A stretch of 64,000 bases of DNA from Minisyncoccia bacterium (GCA_041750655.1 JBGSYZ010000011.1:65794-129793); one strand, 5' to 3'. Counted from the stretch's first letter, positions 5,260 to 57,622 are shown. The notes: generated by a model from the letters alone, not told the origin. Numbers and translations: made by a program.

Positions 5260-5490
5260 ATGGAAACTTTATCGTCGGTGTTGCCGTACGTGCAAATCAT
5301 CCTCTCCATCATTCTCGTGACTGTAATTATGCTGCAACAGCGTGGTTCTAGTTTGGGTGGAGCTTTTGGTAGTGACAACTACAGTGCAACATTCAATCAA
5401 CGTCGTGGAGCAGAACTATTCCTCTTCCGCTTATCTATTGCCGTCAGTATTTTATTTGTACTCTCAGCGATCGCTTCCCTCGTTATCTAG
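5260..5490 (+). CDS. secG: preprotein translocase subunit SecG
   Basis: IMLQQRGSSLGGAFGSDNYSATFNQRRGAELFLFRLSIAVSILF matches the SecG signature (LLQ.GKG.GLGGAFG ... RG....L.R.T). A TTGCTC-17-TATCAT promoter lies just upstream. The start is taken at the internal Met (METLSS). Confidence 0.7.
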   Translation: METLSSVLPYVQIILSIILVTVIMLQQRGSSLGGAFGSDNYSATFNQRRGAELFLFRLSIAVSILFVLSAIASLVI

Positions 5491-5583
5491 CGACGGTTCC
5501 ATTCGTGGTTACGTTTCATCTTTTAGTATTCGTATTCACTAGTTTCAGCACTCCTGAATCGGTTATTTATAGCGCATTTATTT

Positions 5584-34503: not shown

Positions 34504-34574
34504 TGCCGGATCGTCTAATGGTAGGACACATGGTTTTGGTCCATGGTATCTAGGTTCGAGCCCTAGTCCGGCAG
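34504..34574 (+). tRNA. tRNA-Gln (anticodon UUG)
   Basis: Cloverleaf folded by hand: acceptor TGCCGGA/TCCGGCA with U1:A72, anticodon stem CATGG/CCATG, loop TTTTGGT, T-arm CTAGG-TTCGAGC-CCTAG, discriminator G. CCA is not encoded. Confidence 0.8.
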
Positions 34575-34722
34575 CACAAACAAGGAGCAAAATGAGTAGC
34601 ATTTTGTGACTATGTTTTGCTAGCCTGACTAGGGCTCGAAAAGCTTTTGAGATAGATTTGACTGGAAGGAAAATATATCCAAAAGGTATACTGTCCATGT
34701 AATGGAAGAGCCCTCGAAAAGG
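34575..34722 (+). repeat. tRNA-Gln-linked repeat unit 1 (about 150 nt; inverted copy of the tRNA T-arm/acceptor 3' segment at its 5' side; degenerate att-like copy at its 3' end)
   Basis: The unit shares long identical stretches with unit 2 at 35277-35437. GACTAGGGCTCGAA is the reverse complement of the tRNA segment TTCGAGCCCTAGTC. Confidence 0.6.
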
Positions 34723-34868
34723 TTCGTCAGATATTTCTGAAAGAAATACCGACAACCTGTACTGCTCGTGTAACGAGAGAGGTCCCCAGTACGGCAACAA
34801 TATTGACTTTTATAAAAAAGTATTTTAAAGTACAGAAAGATTTTTAGATTTTTTCTTCTTGAGAGGAC

Positions 34869-35186
34869 ATGGTCATGACAGACAATAATGAAGTTGTGAA
34901 AGAGAAGCTTTTGCGACTTGCTCAGCAACGTGCCAGAAACTCAGTCATCGCATTCAGGCGCCAGAGTGATTCAGGTATTCACGAAGGGAGGGTTCGTGCC
35001 GACAAAGTCTGGGGTGGACAACAACAAGAACTTGCAGCAACACTGCCCGAGGACGACCCACTTCGCGAGGTGGTTGAGTTTATCGGGAAACTCGATGTGA
35101 TTAGCCCGCCGCAACATCTCGTCTCCAAGATTCCCCAGAAATCAGGAGTAACACTAGGTGATGTGTGGCCTGATTCTGAAGATTGA
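34869..35186 (+). CDS. hypothetical protein (105 aa), cargo ORF between repeat units, visibly higher GC than flanks
   Basis: Clean ORF followed by the strong terminator at 35203-35246. No family recognised. Confidence 0.45.
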   Translation: MVMTDNNEVVKEKLLRLAQQRARNSVIAFRRQSDSGIHEGRVRADKVWGGQQQELAATLPEDDPLREVVEFIGKLDVISPPQHLVSKIPQKSGVTLGDVWPDSED

Positions 35187-35202
35187 GTGAACTCTGAACT
35201 CA

Positions 35203-35246
35203 AGAGCCGTTTAGTACCGAAAGGGGAAAACGGCTCTTTCATTTTA
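35203..35246 (+). terminator. Rho-independent terminator (GAGCCGTTT...AAACGGCTC + T-run)
   Basis: Read directly. Confidence 0.65.
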
Positions 35247-35276
35247 TATATAAGTTCCAACCTCGTCCCAGACGGC

Positions 35277-35437
35277 CAGCACAAACAAGGAGCAAAATGA
35301 GTAGCATTTTGTGACTATGTTTTGCTAGCCTGACTAGGGCTCGAAAAGCTTTTGTGACAGATTCGACCAGAGAGAGAATATGTCCAAAAGGTATACTGGT
35401 CATGTAATGACCGAGACCCCTAGTCCGGTCCGGCAGC
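35277..35437 (+). repeat. tRNA-Gln-linked repeat unit 2, ending in direct repeat of tRNA 3' end (GAGACCCCTAGTCCGGTCCGGCAGC)
   Basis: Near-identical to unit 1 over CAGCACAAACAAGGAGCAAAATGAGTAGCATTTTGTGACTATGTTTTGCTAGCCTGACTAGGGCTCGAAAAGCTTTTG. Confidence 0.65.
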
Positions 35438-35539
35438 CAATTAATATTAACTTTATTTTTCAACGCTGGTTCGGTTCGAGTACTTAGTTAAAACAGAAAA
35501 CCCACCGACGGCGGGAATTCCGTGGCGGGTATGTGTGCC

Positions 35540-35746
35540 TCAGCCGTGCAGAGTGTATTTACCGACCGAGTTAAAAATCAGCGACACTTCCTGAGGATTG
35601 AAGCCCAGATCAGCGACTTCTTTAAGAGTGAGGATGGTCAGCTGCCCCCAGCCAGTGATTCCTTCTTTTGTAAGACGGGAAACAATATCTTCAGAAAGTC
35701 CCATTTTAGAAACAGACAGGTTGTCGTCTCGTTCACTCCAGGGCAT
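35540..35746 (-). CDS. hypothetical small protein (68 aa), possible helix-hairpin-helix fold; cargo ORF
   Basis: LSEDIVSRLTKEGITGWGQLTILTLKEVADLGF resembles HhH/RNAP-alpha-CTD-like motifs. It lies between repeat units 2 and 3. Confidence 0.35.
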   Translation of the reverse strand: MPWSERDDNLSVSKMGLSEDIVSRLTKEGITGWGQLTILTLKEVADLGFNPQEVSLIFNSVGKYTLHG

Positions 35747-35896
35747 GTTAGTCTCCTATTCAAGTTATCTTTCGAAAAACTAACACGATTTTACAAAAGT
35801 TTCAACATCATCCCAGACAGCCAGCTTGAGAAAATACGCACCGCATGGGGCGATTTTCATTCAAGCTGCCGGAAGAAAGTGCTGGGAGCACTTTCG

Positions 35897-35998
35897 TCTA
35901 GGGCTCGAAAAGCTTTTGAGTTATTTCTGGAAGTATTGAACAGAAATAGCTAAAAGGTATACTGGTCATGTAATGACCGAGACCCCTAGTCCGGCAGC
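35897..35998 (+). repeat. tRNA-Gln-linked repeat unit 3 (3' two-thirds of the unit), ending in direct repeat of tRNA 3' end (GAGACCCCTAGTCCGGCAGC)
   Basis: It matches units 1 and 2 from TAGGGCTCGAAAAGCTTTTG onward. Confidence 0.6.
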
Positions 35999-50995: not shown

Positions 50996-51077
50996 GCCGC
51001 GGTGGCGGAATTGGTAGACGCGTACGACTCAAAATCGTATCTCGCAAGGGGTGAGGGTTCGATTCCCTCCCGCGGCA
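50996..51077 (+). tRNA. tRNA-Leu (anticodon CAA), type II with long variable arm
   Basis: Folded by hand: acceptor GCCGCGG/CCGCGGC, anticodon stem TACGA/TCGTA, loop CTCAAAA, variable arm TCTCGCAAGGGGTGAG, T-arm GAGGG-TTCGATT-CCCTC, discriminator A. Confidence 0.8.
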
Positions 51078-51128
51078 CTATGGGTGGAAATGATATACCG
51101 TTCGACAGTCTCCCAGACTGTCTCACCA

Positions 51129-51179
51129 ACTCAAAATCGTATGCTTCACGGCATGAGGGTTCGACCCCCTCCCGCGGCA
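51129..51179 (+). repeat. duplicated 3' portion of tRNA-Leu (anticodon-loop 3' side through acceptor 3' end), diverged in variable arm and T-loop
   Basis: ACTCAAAATCGTA...GAGGGTTCGACCCCCTCCCGCGGCA parallels tRNA positions 34-76. No matching 5' half lies upstream. Confidence 0.5.
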
Positions 51180-51223
51180 CAAATGGATTGGAGAAAAGTA
51201 TTAATTGAAAGTGATGTCTTATA

Positions 51224-52923: not shown

Positions 52924-53027
52924 TTTAAAGCGGTTTTTTAAGTAGTATGTTGAGCACATAAATAAACCGTGTTTAGTAAGTACATACGGAGATTTGTGCG
53001 TTAAAGAATTTAATTTAAGTTAGAGTG

Positions 53028-53195
53028 TGTACTGCACTCAACTTAAACAATGTGACGGCAAGAGGAGACAAGCGAAAGTTGGGGTAAGTTTTTCACTCAA
53101 CTTAAATTGCGTCCCAGACATTGTCTGCAAGAGGATGTGAGTAAGAGTTGGCGTGCGGATTGCACTCAACTTAAATCGCGCCCCGCGCAATTTAA
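53028..53195 (+). repeat. three direct copies of CACTCAACTTAAA at about 63-68-nt spacing, each followed by a local hairpin, immediately upstream of tRNA-Trp; preceded by an inverted partial copy (AATTTAAGTTAGAGTG)
   Basis: Read directly. Units 1 and 2 also share GCAAGAGGA and end in AGTTGG. Confidence 0.55.
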
Positions 53196-53266
53196 GGGCC
53201 TATAGTTTAGTGGTAGAATGCTGGTCTCCAAAACCAGCGGCCGTGGTTCGAGTCCACGTGGGCCCG
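53196..53266 (+). tRNA. tRNA-Trp (anticodon CCA)
   Basis: Acceptor GGGCCTA/TGGGCCC (one G-U), anticodon stem CTGGT/ACCAG, loop CTCCAAA, T-arm CGTGG-TTCGAGT-CCACG, discriminator G. CCA is not encoded. Confidence 0.85.
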
Positions 53267-53465
53267 CAGCAGCAAAAGAAAATGACCGAAACAGATGTTT
53301 CGGTCATTTTCTTTTAGCAAGCCAACTGCTTGGCTTGCGGCTGCCGCGGGAGGCGGAGCGCTGTGAGAAATTCATTTCTAGAATTTCGAACCGCGAGCCG
53401 GGGTCGAAGGTACTTAGTAGAATCAGAGCAAAGCGAATGATTATACTTAGTAACCTGTGACCGCC
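53267..53465 (+). repeat. tRNA-trailer structured repeat, copy A (terminator hairpin + conserved hairpin AGCAAGCCAA-CTGC-TTGGCTTGC + segment complementary to tRNA-Trp 3' end + about 100-nt conserved tail)
   Basis: Aligned by eye to copies B and C. GGCTGCCGCGGG is complementary to the tRNA-Trp 3' end CCCGCAGCAGC with one mismatch. Confidence 0.65.
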
Positions 53466-53528
53466 ATTGAAAACATCCAGCATACACTGGGTATTTTTTA
53501 CCCCACATATCAGTTCAGAACTTTAGTA

Positions 53529-53556
53529 TTGACAAAATATTATTTTAGTGTATTAT
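53529..53556 (+). promoter_or_regulatory. sigma-70-type promoter TTGACA-16nt-TATTAT driving the small high-GC ORF
   Basis: Read directly. A GGAGCA RBS lies 8 nt before the ATG at 53592. Confidence 0.6.
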
Positions 53557-53591
53557 GTGTTTCAGGTAATACAACGGTAGGAGCACCGACA

Positions 53592-53840
53592 ATGGAAGAT
53601 ACCGACCTCACCATACAGCAGATGGATCGCGGACCCTTCGAGGGCAAGTGGTTCTGTCACCGCAACGAAGGCATGGAGTACCTCCATTCCGACGGCTCGT
53701 GGCAGATGATGGCTGGCAAAACGGCCTACTTCGACTCCGAAGAGGACATCGAGGCCCTGCTCGACCGGCTGGACGAGGACGCCGGACAGGCCTACCTCGA
53801 CTTCCAGGAAGAACAGGTAGGTCGCACGGGCTATCCGTGA
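53592..53840 (+). CDS. hypothetical acidic small protein (82 aa) of atypically high GC; MEDTDLTIQQMDRGPFEGKWFCHRNEGMEYLHSDGSWQMMAGKTAYFDSEEDIEALLDRLDEDAGQAYLDFQEEQVGRTGYP
   Basis: I chose the internal start because it has a consensus promoter and an SD. The GC content is visibly far above the flanks (about 60% by eye, not computed). The overlapping antisense and out-of-frame ORFs here are artefacts of the high GC. Confidence 0.5.
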   Translation: MEDTDLTIQQMDRGPFEGKWFCHRNEGMEYLHSDGSWQMMAGKTAYFDSEEDIEALLDRLDEDAGQAYLDFQEEQVGRTGYP

Positions 53841-53993
53841 TTCGACCAATCGGCTCCCAACAAGCCGTCCACCACTCTTTGAAAGAGTCGGTTGGGCGGC
53901 TCTTTTGTTTTTATGTCACAAACTCCCGCAACACCTGAATACTCGACTTGATACACTCCTTCTCCCTATACAGTTCTGAAAGCCACATTTCTT

Positions 53994-54183
53994 GCCCGCC
54001 GAGGTACAAAAGAAAAAACTGATGCTTAAGCATCAGTCTTTTCTTTTGTAGCAAGCAAACTGCTTTGCTTGCGTGCCTCGGCGGGAGACGGAGACATGTT
54101 TCTTCTCCTTTCAAGATAAGAAATAGTCGAGTCCGGGGAGGAAGTTCTTATGAGCGTAAGCGAATTAGAAACTTGACCCCGCC
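53994..54183 (+). repeat. structured repeat, copy B (no tRNA upstream; the long-range stem pairs GCCCGCCGAGGTAC with GTGCCTCGGCGGG)
   Basis: Same architecture as copies A and C. Hairpin 1 is AACTGATGCTTAAGCATCAGT. The conserved hairpin is GTAGCAAGCAAA-CTGC-TTTGCTTGC. Confidence 0.6.
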
Positions 54184-54209
54184 AAAAATATTATAAAACA
54201 CAAAAATCC

Positions 54210-55298
54210 TTACCAAGCTACGTGAAGGTGAGTACCGCTACCAGCATTGTGTATCAAAGCTTCTCTTGCTCCGTTAGACTTGGCCCACTGCTGAGCAGCT
54301 TGCATTTGTGCTTGTGTCCCCACAAAATCTGCCGCTCGGCCAGTTAAATGGTATGAGGTTGAAACCCCGCCAGCATTGGCATTTTGGGTTGCTGTCCGAT
54401 ATCCGCTAGTAACAGTTAAACCAAAATTATTTGCAATATATTGCACATTACTTACAATACCACTATCAAATTGTCTGCCACTATAACTAGTTAGTGAACC
54501 ACTAGGACTAACTGTAGAAGTAAATCCACTATTAAATACACACGAACCAAATGCGTCAAAAGTATAGCCGGGTGGGCAACTACCCCCGGGTGACTGCAGT
54601 ATCGGCCCAGAAGCAACCACACACGAACCAAATGCGTCCATGGTATACCATTGTGGACACTGGCCTCCTGCTGAAGGTAACACTACCGTTTGAATACACG
54701 TGCCAAATGAATCCATAGCATACCCAAGTGGACAATGACCTCCTGGTGAAGGTAAAACTGACTGCTGCTGGTTGGTTGGGTCAAACGGTTGAACAGCAAT
54801 TACCATTTGCCACTCAGATGATCCAGGCAAAACAGCTGTTCCGTCATTTAATTGAACCTGACTTGAACAAGTAATTTGATTCATTTGATTCCACGGCATT
54901 GGGGAGTTGGTACCAAATTGCACTTCACCGTTTGGCAACAAAGACTTAAGCATCACGTCAATGACAAGCCACGCGGTGAGAATAATGATGAGACCAATCA
55001 GCACGTTGGTCATTACCCCTTTCCCTTTTTTAACTTGTGCGGCATTTCCAGCTGAACTAAGCATAAGCCACCCAGCATATATAAAAATAATTACTGAAAT
55101 TCCGACAGCCAAAACAATGATTATATCAGTGACGTTGTTAGCTAGTTGAACAATCTGACAGGTACCACAATCATCACCCGAACAAGGAACCAGAGGATTC
55201 GTCTGGGCACCAGTACTAAACGGTACAAATAAAACAAAAAGAAAAAAGAAAAAAGAAAATGAGATGATTTTATTTGCTGCAGAAAGTGAACAATACAT
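54210..55298 (-). CDS. secreted peptidoglycan hydrolase: N-terminal Cys-rich two-helix (T4SS/conjugative-pilin-like) domain, three GGxCPxGYxxDxFGxC repeats, C-terminal peptidase M15 (zinc D-Ala-D-Ala carboxypeptidase/endopeptidase) domain
   Basis: M15 motifs SYHLTGRAADF (SxHxxGxAxD) and THLHVAW (HxH). The N-terminal PLVPCSGDDCGTCQIV plus two hydrophobic helices are shared with the adjacent paralog. Confidence 0.6.
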   Translation of the reverse strand: MYCSLSAANKIISFSFFFFLFVLFVPFSTGAQTNPLVPCSGDDCGTCQIVQLANNVTDIIIVLAVGISVIIFIYAGWLMLSSAGNAAQVKKGKGVMTNVLIGLIIILTAWLVIDVMLKSLLPNGEVQFGTNSPMPWNQMNQITCSSQVQLNDGTAVLPGSSEWQMVIAVQPFDPTNQQQSVLPSPGGHCPLGYAMDSFGTCIQTVVLPSAGGQCPQWYTMDAFGSCVVASGPILQSPGGSCPPGYTFDAFGSCVFNSGFTSTVSPSGSLTSYSGRQFDSGIVSNVQYIANNFGLTVTSGYRTATQNANAGGVSTSYHLTGRAADFVGTQAQMQAAQQWAKSNGAREALIHNAGSGTHLHVAW

Positions 55299-55307
55299 AG
55301 GAATTCA

Positions 55308-56366
55308 TTATGGCATCGGAGCTTGGCCCGCCATACCTAGAATGTTGTTTACATAGTTTCTAGTTTCAGCATAGCCGGAGTTGGCTGTACACTGCCACCA
55401 TGTTTGTCCGGGACAGGTCACACTTTGATTGAGTGCCCTTGGGCCACCATTGTAATACGCAAGAGCATTGGCCACATTACCACTACTGGCTTGTAGTCCT
55501 TGTCCAAAGTATGTCACTCCTAGCTGCATGTTTATTTGTGGGTGCGAAGTGAGATATGACTGTATTTGTGAATTGCTCATACCAGATAAATCACAAAGAC
55601 CAGTTTGTGAGCATAGTTGACTTGCAGTGCCTGGCATTATTTGAAAGATTCCAGCTGCTCCCGCGGGACTAATCGCATTAGGATTGTACCCAGACTCTTG
55701 GTACATTTGCGCTTGCAAAATCCTACAGTACGCGCCCAGACCTTGTGAGGAAGCAATGCTACACAACTGTGTCGCATACGGATCATTTGGGTTATAAGCT
55801 ACGCCGGCGGCTGTTGCCAATTGTTGCGGTGTCATTTGTGTCGCATTTAAACCAGTCGCTGTCACTCGGGGCCAGTTACTCGACCCGGGCAGATGTGCAA
55901 TACCGTCACTTAGTGGAACTTGGTTAGAACACGACACCTGATTCCATGGTAACCACTGGCCAGCAGACATCTGGACTTGACCACTATTTTTTAGAAGTGC
56001 TTTCATGCCTGTATCAATAATAAGCCAGGCCACTAACATTAAAATAAGACCGATTAAAACATTCTTAAGCATGTTCTTGGCTCGAGTGTATTCCGATGGG
56101 TTGCCACCAGAGATAAGAAGATTGAATCCTCCCCAGGCTGCGAGCAGGACTACCCCCACAATCATTATCATAATGATAAATCGCAATACCCGGTTGCCGA
56201 GAACCACAATTTGGCACGTACCGCAGTCAGTACCCGAGCAAGGCACCAGGCCGCCTGTATCTCCCACTAGTGTGTTACCAGGAATACTTTGAGCCAAGAC
56301 AAACATTGGCAGTGCCAAAGTTAAAAAACCAAGAAAATATACGAGGCCGCGCTTCATAAAATGCAT
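55308..56366 (-). CDS. secreted peptidoglycan hydrolase: N-terminal Cys-rich two-helix (pilin-like) domain fused to lytic transglycosylase (SLT/GH23) domain
   Basis: SLT motif AQMYQESGYNPNAISPAGAAGIFQIMPGTA (ES...GxxQxM). The N-terminal GGLVPCSGTDCGTCQIV plus two TM helices are paralogous to the upstream gene. Confidence 0.65.
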   Translation of the reverse strand: MHFMKRGLVYFLGFLTLALPMFVLAQSIPGNTLVGDTGGLVPCSGTDCGTCQIVVLGNRVLRFIIMIMIVGVVLLAAWGGFNLLISGGNPSEYTRAKNMLKNVLIGLILMLVAWLIIDTGMKALLKNSGQVQMSAGQWLPWNQVSCSNQVPLSDGIAHLPGSSNWPRVTATGLNATQMTPQQLATAAGVAYNPNDPYATQLCSIASSQGLGAYCRILQAQMYQESGYNPNAISPAGAAGIFQIMPGTASQLCSQTGLCDLSGMSNSQIQSYLTSHPQINMQLGVTYFGQGLQASSGNVANALAYYNGGPRALNQSVTCPGQTWWQCTANSGYAETRNYVNNILGMAGQAPMP

Positions 56367-56638
56367 GTATACTAAAATCGTACCACAGGGCCTAATAAAA
56401 AACTTTTCGATATACCCCTTTTGTGGTAACGTATGCCAACGAATTTGCTCCGTAAATTCGTTGGTTCACAATCTAAGCGTTCGAACCAAATTAAATATCT
56501 GCGTCGGTGGATGAAACAAAAACTGCTTTTTGTTTCATCTGGCGCCAGCTTAGCTGGCAGACAGCGATGTGAACGAATGTGAGCAGCTGGCAAGTGGGCC
56601 AGCACCCGCATTTGTTCACACTCTGTGTGACAACACAT

Positions 56639-56724
56639 GCGTCGGTGGTGGAGTGGTCTATCACATCAGACTGTAAATCTGACGGCTTATGCCTTCGCTG
56701 GTTCGAATCCAGCCCGGCGCACCA
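56639..56724 (+). tRNA. tRNA-Tyr (anticodon GUA), long variable arm, CCA encoded
   Basis: Acceptor GCGTCGG/CCGGCGC (one G-U), anticodon stem TCAGA/TCTGA, loop CTGTAAA, T-arm GCTGG-TTCGAAT-CCAGC, discriminator A, then CCA. Confidence 0.85.
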
Positions 56725-56919
56725 AGGTATAAGAAAAATCACTGGAATTCATTCCAGTGATTTTCTTATAGCAAGCAAACTGCTTTGCTTGCGTACCTTG
56801 GTGCGAGGCGGAAGTATGTTTTTCATTCATTCCTAGAATGAAAAACAGCTGAGCCGGGGTCGAGAGTACTTAGCAAAATAAATGCAAAGCATTTATTTTG
56901 CTTAGTAACTCGTGACCAC
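56725..56919 (+). repeat. tRNA-trailer structured repeat, copy C (terminator hairpin ATCACTGGAA-TTCA-TTCCAGTGAT + conserved hairpin AGCAAGCAAA-CTGC-TTTGCTTGC + GTACCTTGGTGCG complementary to the tRNA-Tyr 3' end + conserved tail)
   Basis: Aligned by eye to copies A and B. The tail shares GAGCCGGGGTCGA(A/G)GGTACTTAG and CTTAGTAAC(C/T)(T/C)GTGACC with copy A. Confidence 0.65.
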
Positions 56920-56983
56920 ATAAACCTTTATAATATACTATAAATAGTGTATTATTTTGTACGAAACAGTTTGGAGAAAATCG

Positions 56984-57121
56984 ATGATGTCTGAACGCGA
57001 ATATCAACGTCGCCTTGCGCCTCTTCTCGAAGAGTTGCAGAGGGTAAAGACCCAGAAGCAGAAGGACGAGATCGAGCAAAAGATGCAAGCCCTCGACCGG
57101 CAAGCGAACGGCAGCAAGTAG
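56984..57121 (+). CDS. hypothetical coiled-coil small protein (45 aa): MMSEREYQRRLAPLLEELQRVKTQKQKDEIEQKMQALDRQANGSK
   Basis: It directly follows repeat copy C. TATAAT/TATTAT -10-like elements and a GGAGAAAA RBS lie upstream. GC is elevated relative to the flanks. A hairpin plus T-run terminator lies downstream. It shares the AGTGTATTAT promoter-region motif with the ORF at 53592. Confidence 0.4.
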   Translation: MMSEREYQRRLAPLLEELQRVKTQKQKDEIEQKMQALDRQANGSK

Positions 57122-57622
57122 AGCGCAACCGCCGACCCAAGAAAGCCCCTGGCTCTCTCACGGGTCAGGCGGTTTTCTTTTACACTAATCCCACCTTCTC
57201 ACACACGTATCTAGGTAAGAAACAATACTCACTTTCTATAATTGCAGTTCTAACTTCACGCATTCCTGCGCACGCGTATAAAAATGAGCATCCTTTGGAT
57301 GCCATTTTTATTGCGTGTGCCGGGAGTACGAGACTAATGTCTCGTACGGCTGGATTCGAAGCTCCGGACGATGTTTTGAGAGCTTCATAGCTAGCAAAAC
57401 GAGGAGGAGCCGTCCAAGAAACCGAGCCTAGTTTATGAACGTAGTGAAATAAAATAGCCGGTATTCGGGGACGAAGGAAGCCGGCACACAAATTATATAC
57501 TCCCATTTTGGAGAATTTAAAATTGGCTTTAATTACGTATTGTATGAGTTAACGTCATTCTCAACTTCTTGCCAATTGCTTAAGACTATGCCAATAATAG
57601 CCGCAGAGAAGGGAGAACGAAA

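Follow-up and report, generated by a model that had tools for sequence, protein, structure and literature searches.

Small gene-less elements at tRNA gene 3′ ends form an apparently undescribed, widespread family

Described systems and the elements behind tRNA genes

Two inverted, target-like copies lying tens of nucleotides apart in the attP of the CTX phage fold, when single-stranded, into a duplex that mimics the target. CTX phage and other Xer-exploiting elements are integrated by enzymes that they do not encode, and tandem arrays and satellites are formed. In IS200/IS605 insertion sequences, a guide located inside the element recognises, by base pairing, both the flanking target and the site of cleavage (PMC3201880), and a changed guide resets the target (PMC5934647); the pairing of element-borne guides with a flanking target is an established principle in IS608 (PMC3201880, PMC5934647). 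In addition, clusters of integron cassettes exist without an integrase, and are known as CALINs (PMC4889954).

Analysis of a 64,000-nucleotide stretch of DNA from a Minisyncoccia bacterium (the window) revealed three copies, A, B and C, of what is apparently a widespread and undescribed family of gene-less elements of about 200 bases located at tRNA 3′ ends. In our best reading, to which we assign a probability of roughly 0.45, these are non-autonomous elements whose folded tRNA-sense strand, probably as single-stranded DNA, is a recombination site with an internal guide reaching across the host-element joint. This logic would resemble that of IS200/IS605 guides, integron attC sites and the folded CTX-phage attP.

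As in IS200/IS605 members (IS608, ISDra2, and the PATEs and REPs), ends fold in a strand-specific manner as single strands, a terminator-like hairpin is present at the left end, insertion occurs just 3′ of a specific sequence and non-autonomous derivatives are common; covariation and strand-biased motifs revealed both the strand-specific hairpins and the internal guide reading the flank. On the other hand, the guide is 11-24 nt long here versus 4 in IS200/IS605, lies 3′ rather than 5′ of the hairpin foot and also pairs with the first bases of the element itself, while the right end repeats the target and an extra two-domain core of about 110 nt is present. In 120 loci, neither a transposase nor a recombinase adjoined the elements, and no ORF recurred within ±4 kb; the top 25 Pfam families of the window ORFs did not include any transposase or recombinase either, and no linked Y1 HUH transposase TnpA was detected in either search.

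Anatomy of the copies in the window

The three-copy repeat of the original prediction was confirmed, since A, B and C could be aligned across about 200 nt and a 24-nt hairpin block, AGCAAGCMAACTGCTTKGCTTGCG, is present exactly three times in the window (positions 53316, 54050 and 56770) versus 0 expected. The count of three proved incomplete: a fourth relative of different build, D, follows C, and a second sub-family is represented by three copies behind tRNA-Gln (34576-35996). All features described below are on the plus strand.

The tRNA-Trp gene preceding A (CCA anticodon; 53196..53267; ARAGORN, and Rfam tRNA at 67 bits) has its discriminator G at 53266 and ends at 53266/53267, the host-element joint being located after C53267. 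Sequence, fold and pairing table place the 5′ strand of the junction helix, X, at 53263..53273, where the tRNA end contributes CCCGC and the first bases of the element are AGCAGC. Sequence and fold also define a 19-bp terminator-like hairpin with an A-run and a T-run (53274..53315), which acts as a replacement terminator for tRNA-Trp and is one arm of a three-way junction. It is followed by the conserved hairpin GCAAGCCAA-CTGC-TTGGCTTGC (53317..53338; block count, alignment and pair counts), a true hairpin as judged from the stem-variant versions existing elsewhere in the family, and by the internal guide X′ (53340..53350; pairing table and fold). X′ is complementary to X, giving the helix CCCGC-A-GCAGC:GCTGC-C-GCGGG with one mismatched position. 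The structured core (53351..53464), delimited by RNAalifold and pair counts on 34 sequences and by comparison of ends, contains Pa (3 bp), then a GGA/GA internal loop and hairpin Pb, which a GG linker separates from the long hairpin Pc/Pd; its terminus, GTGACC-GC, mimics the tRNA end CCCGC.

Sequence features reveal a cargo part adjoining A (53475..53999). Its orphan ORF of 82 aa (53592-53840) is preceded by a terminator (53475-53500) and the promoter TTGACA-16-TATTAT (53529-53556) and followed by a second terminator (53880-53915); next come the right-end motif CAGTTCT.. (53970-53993) and the direct repeat GCCCGC (53994-53999). This segment is either part of A or a separate cassette; a homologous promoter module lacking the structured part is present at locus L146.

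B is a minimal element of 183 bp (54000..54182), identified by sequence, alignment, hairpin block and pairing table. Its X, CCCGCCGAGGTAC (53995-54007), pairs with X′, GTGCCTCGGCGGG (54073-54085), including one T.G pair, and between them lie a terminator-like hairpin (54008-54049) and the conserved hairpin (54051-54072); the core (54086-54182) terminates in GACCCCGC. A near-identical counterpart of this X/X′ pair was found at tRNA-Trp in another organism (L149).

The tRNA-Tyr gene (GTA anticodon; 56639..56724; sequence, ARAGORN and Rfam) is joined to C after C56722, so that the final CA of its CCA end comes from the element. The structured module of C (56723..56919; sequence, alignment, hairpin block, pairing table and fold) has its X at 56717-56729; a hairpin follows (56730-56769), then the conserved hairpin (56771-56792) and X′ (56793-56805), while the core occupies 56806-56919. 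The helix is formed by GCGCACCAAGGTA (56717-56729) and TACCTTGGTGCG (56794-56805). Its adjoining cargo part (56920..57273; sequence features) has promoter-like sites (56912-56955) ahead of an orphan ORF of 45 aa (56984-57121) and a terminator behind it (57148-57178), with a right-end motif at 57244-57266 and the direct repeat GCGCAC at 57268-57273.

Element D (57274..57489), read against the family architecture, shows the commoner build. It contains a hairpin plus X′a, TGCGTGTGCCGGGA (57312-57325), whose pairing partner is the acceptor 3′ strand, then the hairpin variant GTACGAGAC-TAAT-GTCTCGTAC (57326-57347), then X′b, GGCTGGATTCGAA (57348-57360), a perfect complement of the T-loop and T-stem of tRNA-Tyr, TTCGAATCCAGCC, and finally the core and, at 57476-57489, the tRNA end repeated in decayed form. 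A to D may tentatively be regarded, as in the best reading, as small non-autonomous mobile elements with a minimal size of about 0.2 kb, inserted exactly at tRNA gene 3′ ends.

Integration anatomy and distribution of the family

That the elements are integrated mobile modules is shown by tandem arrays, by direct repeats derived from the tRNA end, by orphan ORFs carried as cargo and by the varied occupancy of identical tRNA-Trp genes. This status, the straddling of the joint by the helix 5′ strand and the DNA-leaning signs described below go beyond the original prediction. A right-end copy of the tRNA end, with at least 11 of 17 nt matched and situated 70-130 nt after the hairpin, was found in 57 of 77 elements, the repeats in the window being GCCCGC, CCCGC and GCGCAC. 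Tandem arrays are present at L006, L040, L044, L109 and L139, and A-B and C-D are arrays of this kind in the window; those with orphan ORFs were observed behind tRNA-Trp, tRNA-Tyr and tRNA-Gln, and these ORFs, located between modules, look richer in G+C than the flanks by eye. The 15 organisms sharing an identical tRNA-Trp 3′ end differ in what comes next, namely various elements, cargo alone or just a plain terminator. Circular or empty-site intermediates were not seen directly, L151 being no more than empty-like.

Insertion at the tRNA 3′ end with restoration of that end, a direct repeat displaced to the distal end (the attL/attR-type repeats of the 57 elements above) and tandem accretion are shared with tRNA islands and CIMEs. 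In contrast to these, att here has a covarying inverted complement, and closely related elements use any tRNA isotype. Furthermore, unlike for tyrosine-integrase islands, no autonomous or integrase-bearing parent with the same att region was found in the 120 genome loci; the family is essentially absent from viral contigs, where one true copy (L121) was detected and no parent element was identified for it.

As for integron attC sites and CALINs, the site appears to be defined by a one-strand DNA fold and not by sequence, the crossover point (here, the joint inside X:X′) falls within one arm of the fold, an arm that neighbouring units share, and small, often orphan ORFs form arrays. However, these arrays are anchored at tRNA 3′ ends and not at an attI beside intI, the modules are longer than attC and contain a three-way junction and a conserved core, and the cargo ORFs have their own promoters. 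An attC site is an imperfect R″-L″...L′-R′ palindrome with extrahelical bases and conserved core sites. The blocks conserved by eye in alignments and family consensus are GCAAGC..GCTTGC, GGAGC..GAG, GGGGTCG and GTGACC; no integron R/L core sites (GTTRRRY/RYYYAAC) were evident among them, and no Xer-type site was recognised by eye. Inverted target-like copies folding in a single strand and tandem arrays are also features of CTX attP, whereas the target here is a tRNA 3′ end differing per element instead of dif, and the elements measure 0.2-0.7 kb and are not phages.

The element also exists well beyond this locus, as the conserved hairpin was found in at least 120 other genomes, mostly of Patescibacteria/CPR. 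With few exceptions it is situated 3′ of a tRNA, within 60 nt of the gene and for at least 18 isotypes; copies also exist beside protein-coding genes (L005 after radA; L001 adjoining ftsK). Modules are always on the tRNA strand, directly downstream. In line with the original prediction, no described ncRNA family corresponds to the element: in Rfam 15, with membership set at the gathering threshold of each family, only tRNAs and an unrelated group I intron in L016 scored above it, and E-values up to 10 gave only noise matches for the hairpins. Membership in an Rfam RNA family (tRNA-like, ribozymes, introns, sRNAs) was rejected on this basis.

Covariation and the nature of the folded molecule

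The core consensus was obtained by RNAalifold and pair counts on 34 sequences. In the conserved hairpin, the predicted C/A-G/T (G/U) covariation was borne out by 23 AU, 9 CG and 1 GC pairs in the 34 family members. The tail of about 110 nt is a two-domain fold with strong covariation, and the conserved segment GAGGCGGAG and the shared tail blocks, previously noted by eye, turned out to be parts of the conserved helices Pa/Pb and Pc/Pd. Pairing was possible in 96.5% of core cells, compared with 77% after shuffling and 19-42% in the slid controls; double changes numbered 173 versus 52 in shuffles, and one-sided changes were rare (19 versus 173 double). When folded computationally, A (z = -10 under DNA parameters) and C (z = -13.5 under RNA parameters) formed the three-way junction and the two domains of the tail.

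An upstream-complementary segment had been predicted for A, B and C, and a long-range helix was found in all three. The claim that its 5′ strand is the tRNA acceptor 3′ strand was correct for the last 5-7 nt only (acceptor 3′ strand end, discriminator and one C), the remainder being the first 6-8 nt of the element itself; in the sub-type of the window, the helix is half tRNA end and half element. X′ pairs with the last tRNA bases and with the first element bases, which places the joint inside the helix. The element-borne half co-varies, with 13 distinct variants pairing at 6.5/7 positions with their own partners versus 3.9/7 with swapped ones, and none of 20,000 shuffles was as good. Elsewhere, the complementary segment was retained in about 75 of 81 tRNA-adjacent copies, covering at least 18 isotypes. 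The covariation of core and junction is far above noise, and supports a functional folded RNA or single-stranded DNA over a neutral duplication. X′ tracks the gene sequence into the non-CCA trailer (e.g. GCGCAC|CAAGGTA, GCCCGC|AGCAGC) instead of the mature CCA end, and a retroviral-type primer-binding site (tRNA priming) was rejected for that reason.

These statistics largely refute already the view of the elements as passive, CIME-like scars, i.e. leftover att sites and terminators of integrase islands with a functionless fold, whose inverted complement arose by mutational extension of terminator palindromes. The classical use of tRNA 3′ ends as integration sites, the direct repeats flanking the elements and a classical partial duplication present at tRNA-Leu would suit such scars. 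We nevertheless consider them very improbable, given the compensatory changes in five helices and in the junction helix, the strand-specific loop motifs, the sequence conservation across phyla and the lack of a parent in the 120 loci and for the viral copy; moreover, the conserved hairpin interrupts the complement at a fixed point, which template-switch extension would not yield.

Besides the tRNA-complementary segment 3′ of the conserved hairpin, a second one is often present 5′ of it. With such guides flanking the hairpin (X′a-hairpin-X′b) in a module of about 190 nt, re-set for each target tRNA, the module could be a guide RNA, similar to IS110 bridge RNAs or seekRNAs, used by an RNA-guided recombinase or transposase whose gene lies elsewhere in the genome, with X′ reading the target or the donor DNA; no recombinase is present in cis, but action in trans is possible. 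A structured segment of about 150-200 nt with a copy-specific flank complement is indeed common to IS110/IS1111 bridge (seek) RNAs and to group I/II intron guides. Those, however, are RNAs with an encoded recombinase, or ribozymes, whereas no protein, promoter or Rfam intron/ribozyme match was found here. Bridge RNAs such as that of IS621 carry guide segments that pair with both strands, while X′a and X′b form one continuous antisense to a single strand. Since no DEDD/IS110-type ORF recurs near the elements in the 120 loci, membership among IS110 bridge RNAs was rejected, and, with a DNA-like loop census, the wider guide-RNA proposal is improbable.

The main alternative, which we regard as rather unlikely, is a structured RNA. 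Read-through transcription starting at the strong tRNA promoter would generate it, or co-transcription where the terminator is absent, and it would either be released as a stable small RNA or act in cis on the pre-tRNA 3′ end, which it would sequester or mark for processing or decay. Mobility would then be a secondary property. This alternative would account for the invariable position of modules on the tRNA strand directly 3′ and for the terminator of A after its core (53475-53500), and the 25-30% of copies without a terminator between tRNA and module must be co-transcribed with the tRNA. Of 118 other tRNAs in these loci, about 45 likewise have an antisense segment; the feature is therefore very common, which could mean a host function. 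A terminator-like hairpin does intervene in about 70% of copies, however, and no promoter was found upstream of the structured module. Cis pairing of 12-24 nt of the tRNA 3′ strand would also compete with tRNA folding, and the copies near radA and ftsK and the Rfam result count against an RNA.

Signs in the fold lean towards DNA over RNA. On the tRNA-sense strand, c(GNA)g and c(GNNA)g caps numbered 99 and 108, versus 17 and 27 on the other strand, about fourfold over background. GCGNAGC and GCGNNAGC are extraordinarily stable as DNA, r(GCGAAAGC) melting at 39 °C and its DNA form at 76.5 °C, and such mini-hairpin motifs are found at single-stranded DNA priming sites (PMC13037366). GNRA loops represented only 15 of 147 tetraloops, and UNCG loops were absent. 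Among non-Watson-Crick positions of X:X′, 28 G.T were counted versus 13 A.C and 34 other mismatches; G.T is thus barely favoured, far below the G.U tolerance of tRNA acceptor stems in the same loci (52 G.U, 4 A.C and 5 others). The rarity of one-sided changes in the core is a further sign of DNA. The tandem G.A internal loops, typical of RNA motifs, within a multi-helix covarying fold, and the mild, about two-fold excess of G.T over A.C on the tRNA-sense strand fit RNA too. IS608 prefers the lagging-strand template, whereas local GC skew on the element strand was positive here in 49 of 92 loci, the 8-kb skew being a weak proxy for replication strand. The apparent lack of replication-strand bias and the lack of a linked transposase or recombinase, of directly observed circular or empty-site intermediates and, in about a quarter of copies, of a terminator are counted against the best reading.

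According to that reading, each element would supply a terminator that replaces the one of the tRNA, together with a three-way junction and a two-domain structured core, and the commoner build would also supply a replacement copy of the last 20 nt or so of the tRNA. We infer that the fold forms on the tRNA-sense strand when this is single-stranded DNA, and that it may serve as a recombination or transposition site. The internal guide X′ would pair with the last tRNA bases and the element start, holding the joint in a helix braced by two hairpins, where a putative strand-transfer enzyme, supplied in trans, would cut and join. The guide would thereby pick its target through base pairing. Because 4-20 nt of the tRNA end recur at the right end of the element, the helix would form again in an excised circle.

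Copies in the window and their covariation

The three repeat copies of the original prediction (A, after tRNA-Trp at 53196-53267; B, the next one; and C, after tRNA-Tyr at 56639-56724) could be aligned over about 200 nt, and the hairpin block AGCAAGCMAACTGCTTKGCTTGCG assigned to them occurred three times in the window against an expectation of 0. The order of parts was the same in A, B and C: a short stretch straddling the end of the upstream unit (X), a long stem of A-run, hairpin and T-run, the conserved hairpin, an internal guide complementary to X (X′), and a tail of about 110 nt. The proposed long-range stem and hairpins appeared exactly so in the computed folds of A and C, as a three-way junction plus two tail domains, with fold z-scores of −10 (A as DNA) and −13.5 (C as RNA). 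The helix with the tRNA 3′ end was also recovered, but the share of the tRNA in it had been overestimated, since the tRNA contributes its last 5-7 nt only and the element's first 6-8 nt make up the remainder of the 5′ strand. A fourth copy, D (57274-57489), follows C and shows the build termed Arch-1, with guide segments on both sides of the conserved hairpin; the segment after the hairpin (X′b, GGCTGGATTCGAA) is complementary to the tRNA-Tyr T-arm at every position, indicating that the insertion of C separated D from tRNA-Tyr.

Scanning metagenomes for the tRNA-Trp 3′ end retrieved 15 contigs, whose different upstream flanks indicate different organisms. Following the same ...GCCCGC end, the element starts TCGAG, ACAGGTAC, AGTAG and CGAGGTA were matched by X′ sequences GCTCGA-GCGGG, GTGTCTGT-GCGGG, GCTACT-GCGGG and GTGCCTCG-GCGGG, respectively, and the start AGCAGC of window copy A by GCTGC-C-GCGGG. 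The constant GCGGG of X′ pairs with the identical tRNA-Trp end, and its variable part follows the element's own start. In the junction helix (X:X′) of 16 copies of the second build, Arch-2, with 13 distinct heptamers, 6.5 of 7 positions were paired with the own partner vs 3.9 of 7 with swapped partners, a value equalled in 0 of 20,000 shuffles. RNAalifold analysis of 34 tails of one kind ("type I" cores) yielded helix Pa, a GGA/GA internal loop, helix Pb, a GG linker and helices Pc/Pd. Under this structure 96.5% of cells were paired, in comparison with 76.9% in shuffles and 19-42% in slid controls; double-change cells numbered 173 vs 52.5 in shuffles, one-sided changes were rare (19), and the covariation score was 0.50 vs 0.15. 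The covariation claimed for a folded element is thus beyond noise in both core and junction helix. The stem sequences of the middle hairpin differ considerably at other tRNAs (GAAAGTGC..GCACTTTC and GTAACAGTGC..GCACTGTTAC; with the CTGC loop, GAACCTGAC-CTGC-GTCAGGTTC and GCACACCAA-CTGC-TTGGTGTGC); pairing is kept and the loop is often unchanged, and this compensated variation rules out a double-stranded protein site. Hairpin and core alike are real structures of a single strand. The notion that the copies are functionless scars is contradicted by the covariation and retains a very small probability.

Further core types exist, such as that of the tRNA-Gln locus at 34504-35996 in the window, where three arrayed modules of a sister sub-type (core AAGCTTTTGAG..CCAAAAGGTATACTG-hairpin(TGTAA)-CGA) come after the tRNA. 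These modules lie at 34576-34712 (X′ GCCTGACTAGGGCTCGAA at 34622-34639), 35267-35438 and 35790-35996, the third with a full build of two guide segments around a different hairpin, and are separated by orphan ORFs at 34869-35186 (+ strand) and 35540-35746 (− strand). Immediately upstream of tRNA-Trp, at 53018-53190, there are three direct repeats of about 65 nt, each with a hairpin AGTTG..CACTCAACTTAAA and a GCAAGAGGA block. The 10 nt with which tRNA-Tyr begins (GCGTCGGTGG) recur at 56501-56510, 138 nt upstream of the gene, followed at 56511-56538 by a hairpin with the same CTGC loop, ATGAAACAAAAA-CTGC-TTTTTGTTTCAT, and by a long hairpin near 56570-56620; the whole feature (56501-56638) may be a 5′-end counterpart of the 3′ elements. 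Between B and tRNA-Tyr, at 54210-56366 on the − strand, the products of two paralogous genes combine an N-terminal T4SS_pilin domain with a cell-wall hydrolase, Peptidase_M15 in one and an SLT lytic transglycosylase in the other.

Distribution of the family and association with tRNA genes

A scan for the exact hairpin in one genome per species returned at least 120 loci, showing that the family is not confined to the window locus. Among the matches listed, most were from Patescibacteria/CPR and a few from Elusimicrobia, Gammaproteobacteria, a Campylobacterales genome, a Leptospira and a Parachlamydiales genome. A same-strand tRNA ended within 60 nt upstream in 81 of 128 listed hairpin instances, with at least 18 isotypes represented, and most of the remaining instances were second copies in tandem arrays or lay at contig edges. 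Copies were occasionally found behind protein-coding genes, as in loci L005 (just after radA) and L001 (adjoining ftsK).

The upstream-complementary segment was also present in copies elsewhere, as antisense to the tRNA 3′ end in both builds. In the commoner Arch-1, the segment before the hairpin (X′a) is complementary to the acceptor 3′ strand, the discriminator and a few trailer bases, and X′b to the T-stem 3′ strand and T-loop (positions −20 to −9), so that the two make up an antisense, interrupted by the hairpin at a fixed point, of the final ~24 nt of the tRNA gene. In the rarer Arch-2 (A, B and C, and loci L006, L013, L053, L087 and L117) the entire X′ follows the hairpin. The reading AATCGAA for T-loops such as TTCGATT identifies the segment as antisense and rules out a direct copy of the tRNA 5′ strands. 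A tRNA primer-binding site was ruled out as X′ tracks the gene trailer and not CCA. A T-loop intron with the right-hand copy of the tRNA end as true 3′ exon was discarded because these copies are often decayed, and the upstream tRNA was scored complete by ARAGORN and Rfam. T-arm antisense was found 40-80 nt downstream of 45 of 118 other tRNAs in the fetched loci vs 9 in the control, indicating that the superfamily is very common in these genomes; about 40% of unselected tRNAs in the sampled loci carry such a segment.

Two tRNA loci showed features of other kinds. At 50996-51180 in the window, the 3′ half of a tRNA-Leu (anticodon loop to end) is repeated with 83% identity 50 nt downstream (51129-51180); this repeat is devoid of an antisense segment and has the look of an att scar left by a classical integrase. 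A Moranbacteria contig (L016) carries a group I intron (Rfam, 61.5 bits) at 5280-5527, amid its tRNA genes, consistent with published accounts that such introns are frequent in Patescibacteria (PMC13011429).

Integration anatomy and associated genes

The elements are integrated mobile modules. They are bounded by direct repeats of the tRNA end, of 11-20 nt in Arch-1 and 5-6 nt in Arch-2, as in the window for GCCCGC (53262-53267 and 53994-53999) and GCGCAC (56717-56722 and 57268-57273). Among the matches listed, the right-hand copy was recognisable in 57 of 77 elements, 70-130 nt past the hairpin, which gives a minimal unit of about 200 bp with no gene. Tandem arrays are common (the unit in L109 measures 157 bp), and the end of the type I core, GACC-GC(A), mimics the tRNA end. 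In one metagenome contig (L139), core-only tandem repeats [GCGGG-AG-core-GTGACC-GCA]n devoid of both terminator hairpin and middle hairpin lie downstream of tRNA-Trp, which points to recombination at the CCGC motif as a possible means of unit multiplication.

One same tRNA-Trp was followed, in various organisms, by Arch-1, Arch-2, cargo only (L141, L146) or a plain terminator (L151). The cargo consists of small ORFs between modules, with their own promoters and terminators, no Pfam match and, as judged by eye, a G+C content richer than the surroundings; an exact-protein look-up of cargo ORF A gave matches from the same organism only. In contigs L141 and L146 a promoter and a small ORF directly follow the same tRNA-Trp end with no structured module, and the L146 promoter region is homologous to the region next to element A (53510-53560). 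The cargo may thus form a cassette type of its own, inserted at the same point as the modules.

All-against-all clustering of 2,187 ORFs from 120 listed loci revealed housekeeping synteny only, with no recurring ORF family near the elements. In Pfam searches, window ORFs and the ORFs neighbouring copies in non-CPR loci were assigned to FtsK, RadA and the like, with no linked protein; the window is an ordinary CPR chromosome (GroEL, TopA, ClpB, DprA, ParB, MiaA), and its listed Pfam families include no recombinase. A bridge-RNA-like role, in which the module would be a guide for a distant recombinase, is quite improbable. A phage origin was rejected: the hairpin was absent from IMG/VR, where the 16 core-motif matches were chance occurrences in a phage gene and a single true member (L121) was found via another motif.

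Folding strand and proposed mechanism

Several features of the sequences suggest that it is the tRNA-sense strand, as DNA, that folds. Mini-hairpin caps xC(GNA)Gx and xC(GNNA)Gx numbered 99 and 108 on this strand vs 17 and 27 on the opposite one, about fourfold over background. GCGNAGC and GCGNNAGC are "extraordinarily stable" DNA mini-hairpins, known from the ssDNA priming sites of G4, St-1/alpha3 and ssiA, and r(GCGAAAGC) melts at 39 °C as RNA in comparison with 76.5 °C as DNA (PMC13037366). Regarding tetraloops, GNRA was a minority (15 of 147), UNCG was absent, and GTCA and GTTA were frequent. Mismatches in X:X′ were 28 G.T, 13 A.C and 34 other, vs 52, 4 and 5, respectively, in the tRNA acceptor stems of the same loci. 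The scarcity of one-sided changes in the core (19 vs 173 double changes) goes in the same direction. A terminator-like hairpin stands ahead of about 70% of copies, and no promoter was found preceding the module. Other features point away from DNA: about a quarter of copies lack the terminator, the G.A internal loops are RNA-like, G.T mismatches are still about twofold more numerous than A.C, and no bias was seen relative to local GC skew (positive in 49 of 92 loci), a weak proxy for the replication strand. A structured RNA produced by read-through, acting on pre-tRNA or as a small RNA, is a possible although rather unlikely alternative. As originally predicted, the element matched no described ncRNA family in Rfam, either at the gathering threshold or at E ≤ 10, and hammerhead, HDV-like, box C/D, T-box and RNase P CR-I consensus motifs were all absent by eye.

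In the fold, the host-element joint lies in the middle of the helix made by the internal guide, and the same helix would re-form in an excised circle because the right end of the element repeats the last bases of the target. For element A, the predicted circle junction is ...GTGACCGC|AGCAGCAAAAG... or ...CATTTCTTGCCCGC|AGCAGC..., and the predicted exact empty site at the tRNA-Trp of the window is ...GGGCCCGC|CAAAAATATT. On these two features we tentatively favour a recombination site that one folded strand would form and that would carry its own, resettable recognition of the target; the module would be mobilised in trans, putatively by an enzyme encoded away from the elements. The nearest logics are those of IS608 guides, integron attC sites and the folded attP of the CTX phage. 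The guide sequences of IS608 (PMC3201880) have been lengthened artificially for specificity (PMC5934647), and attC sites include arrays without integrase (PMC4889954). The elements fall outside IS200/IS605, as they carry no TnpA and their guide geometry is different, and outside classical integrase islands, as no parent element was found; regarding integrons, no obvious core-site consensus was seen in the element by eye. Full-text literature searches, which covered tRNA-linked repeats of CPR genomes, folded attP and integron-like cassettes among other subjects, yielded no description of the family, which is best described as a new variant of "folded-strand, guide-bearing" elements. A bolder proposal, which we consider clearly unlikely, is self-contained nucleic-acid-guided insertion: a gene-less module of ~190 nt would direct itself into whatever DNA end is chosen (tRNA 3′ ends in the present case) by base pairing of 5-24 nt across the joint, with ubiquitous host enzymes only or a novel enzyme class. 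Such modules would be a major means by which gene cassettes are exchanged in CPR bacteria, which are naturally competent and have few mobile elements.

Whether DNA or RNA, the family is missing from Rfam and from annotation pipelines; if the fold works as RNA, it would represent a large and so far undescribed group of RNAs associated with tRNA 3′ ends. If the recombination-site reading is true, the modules would be a new, very compact class among elements choosing targets by base pairing (IS200/IS605, IS110, group II introns), with natural guides of 11-24 nt re-set for each tRNA, of obvious interest for programmable DNA insertion. They would also account for the occupant of the 3′ flank at a large share of Patescibacteria tRNA genes and for the shuffling of small orphan genes in these reduced genomes.
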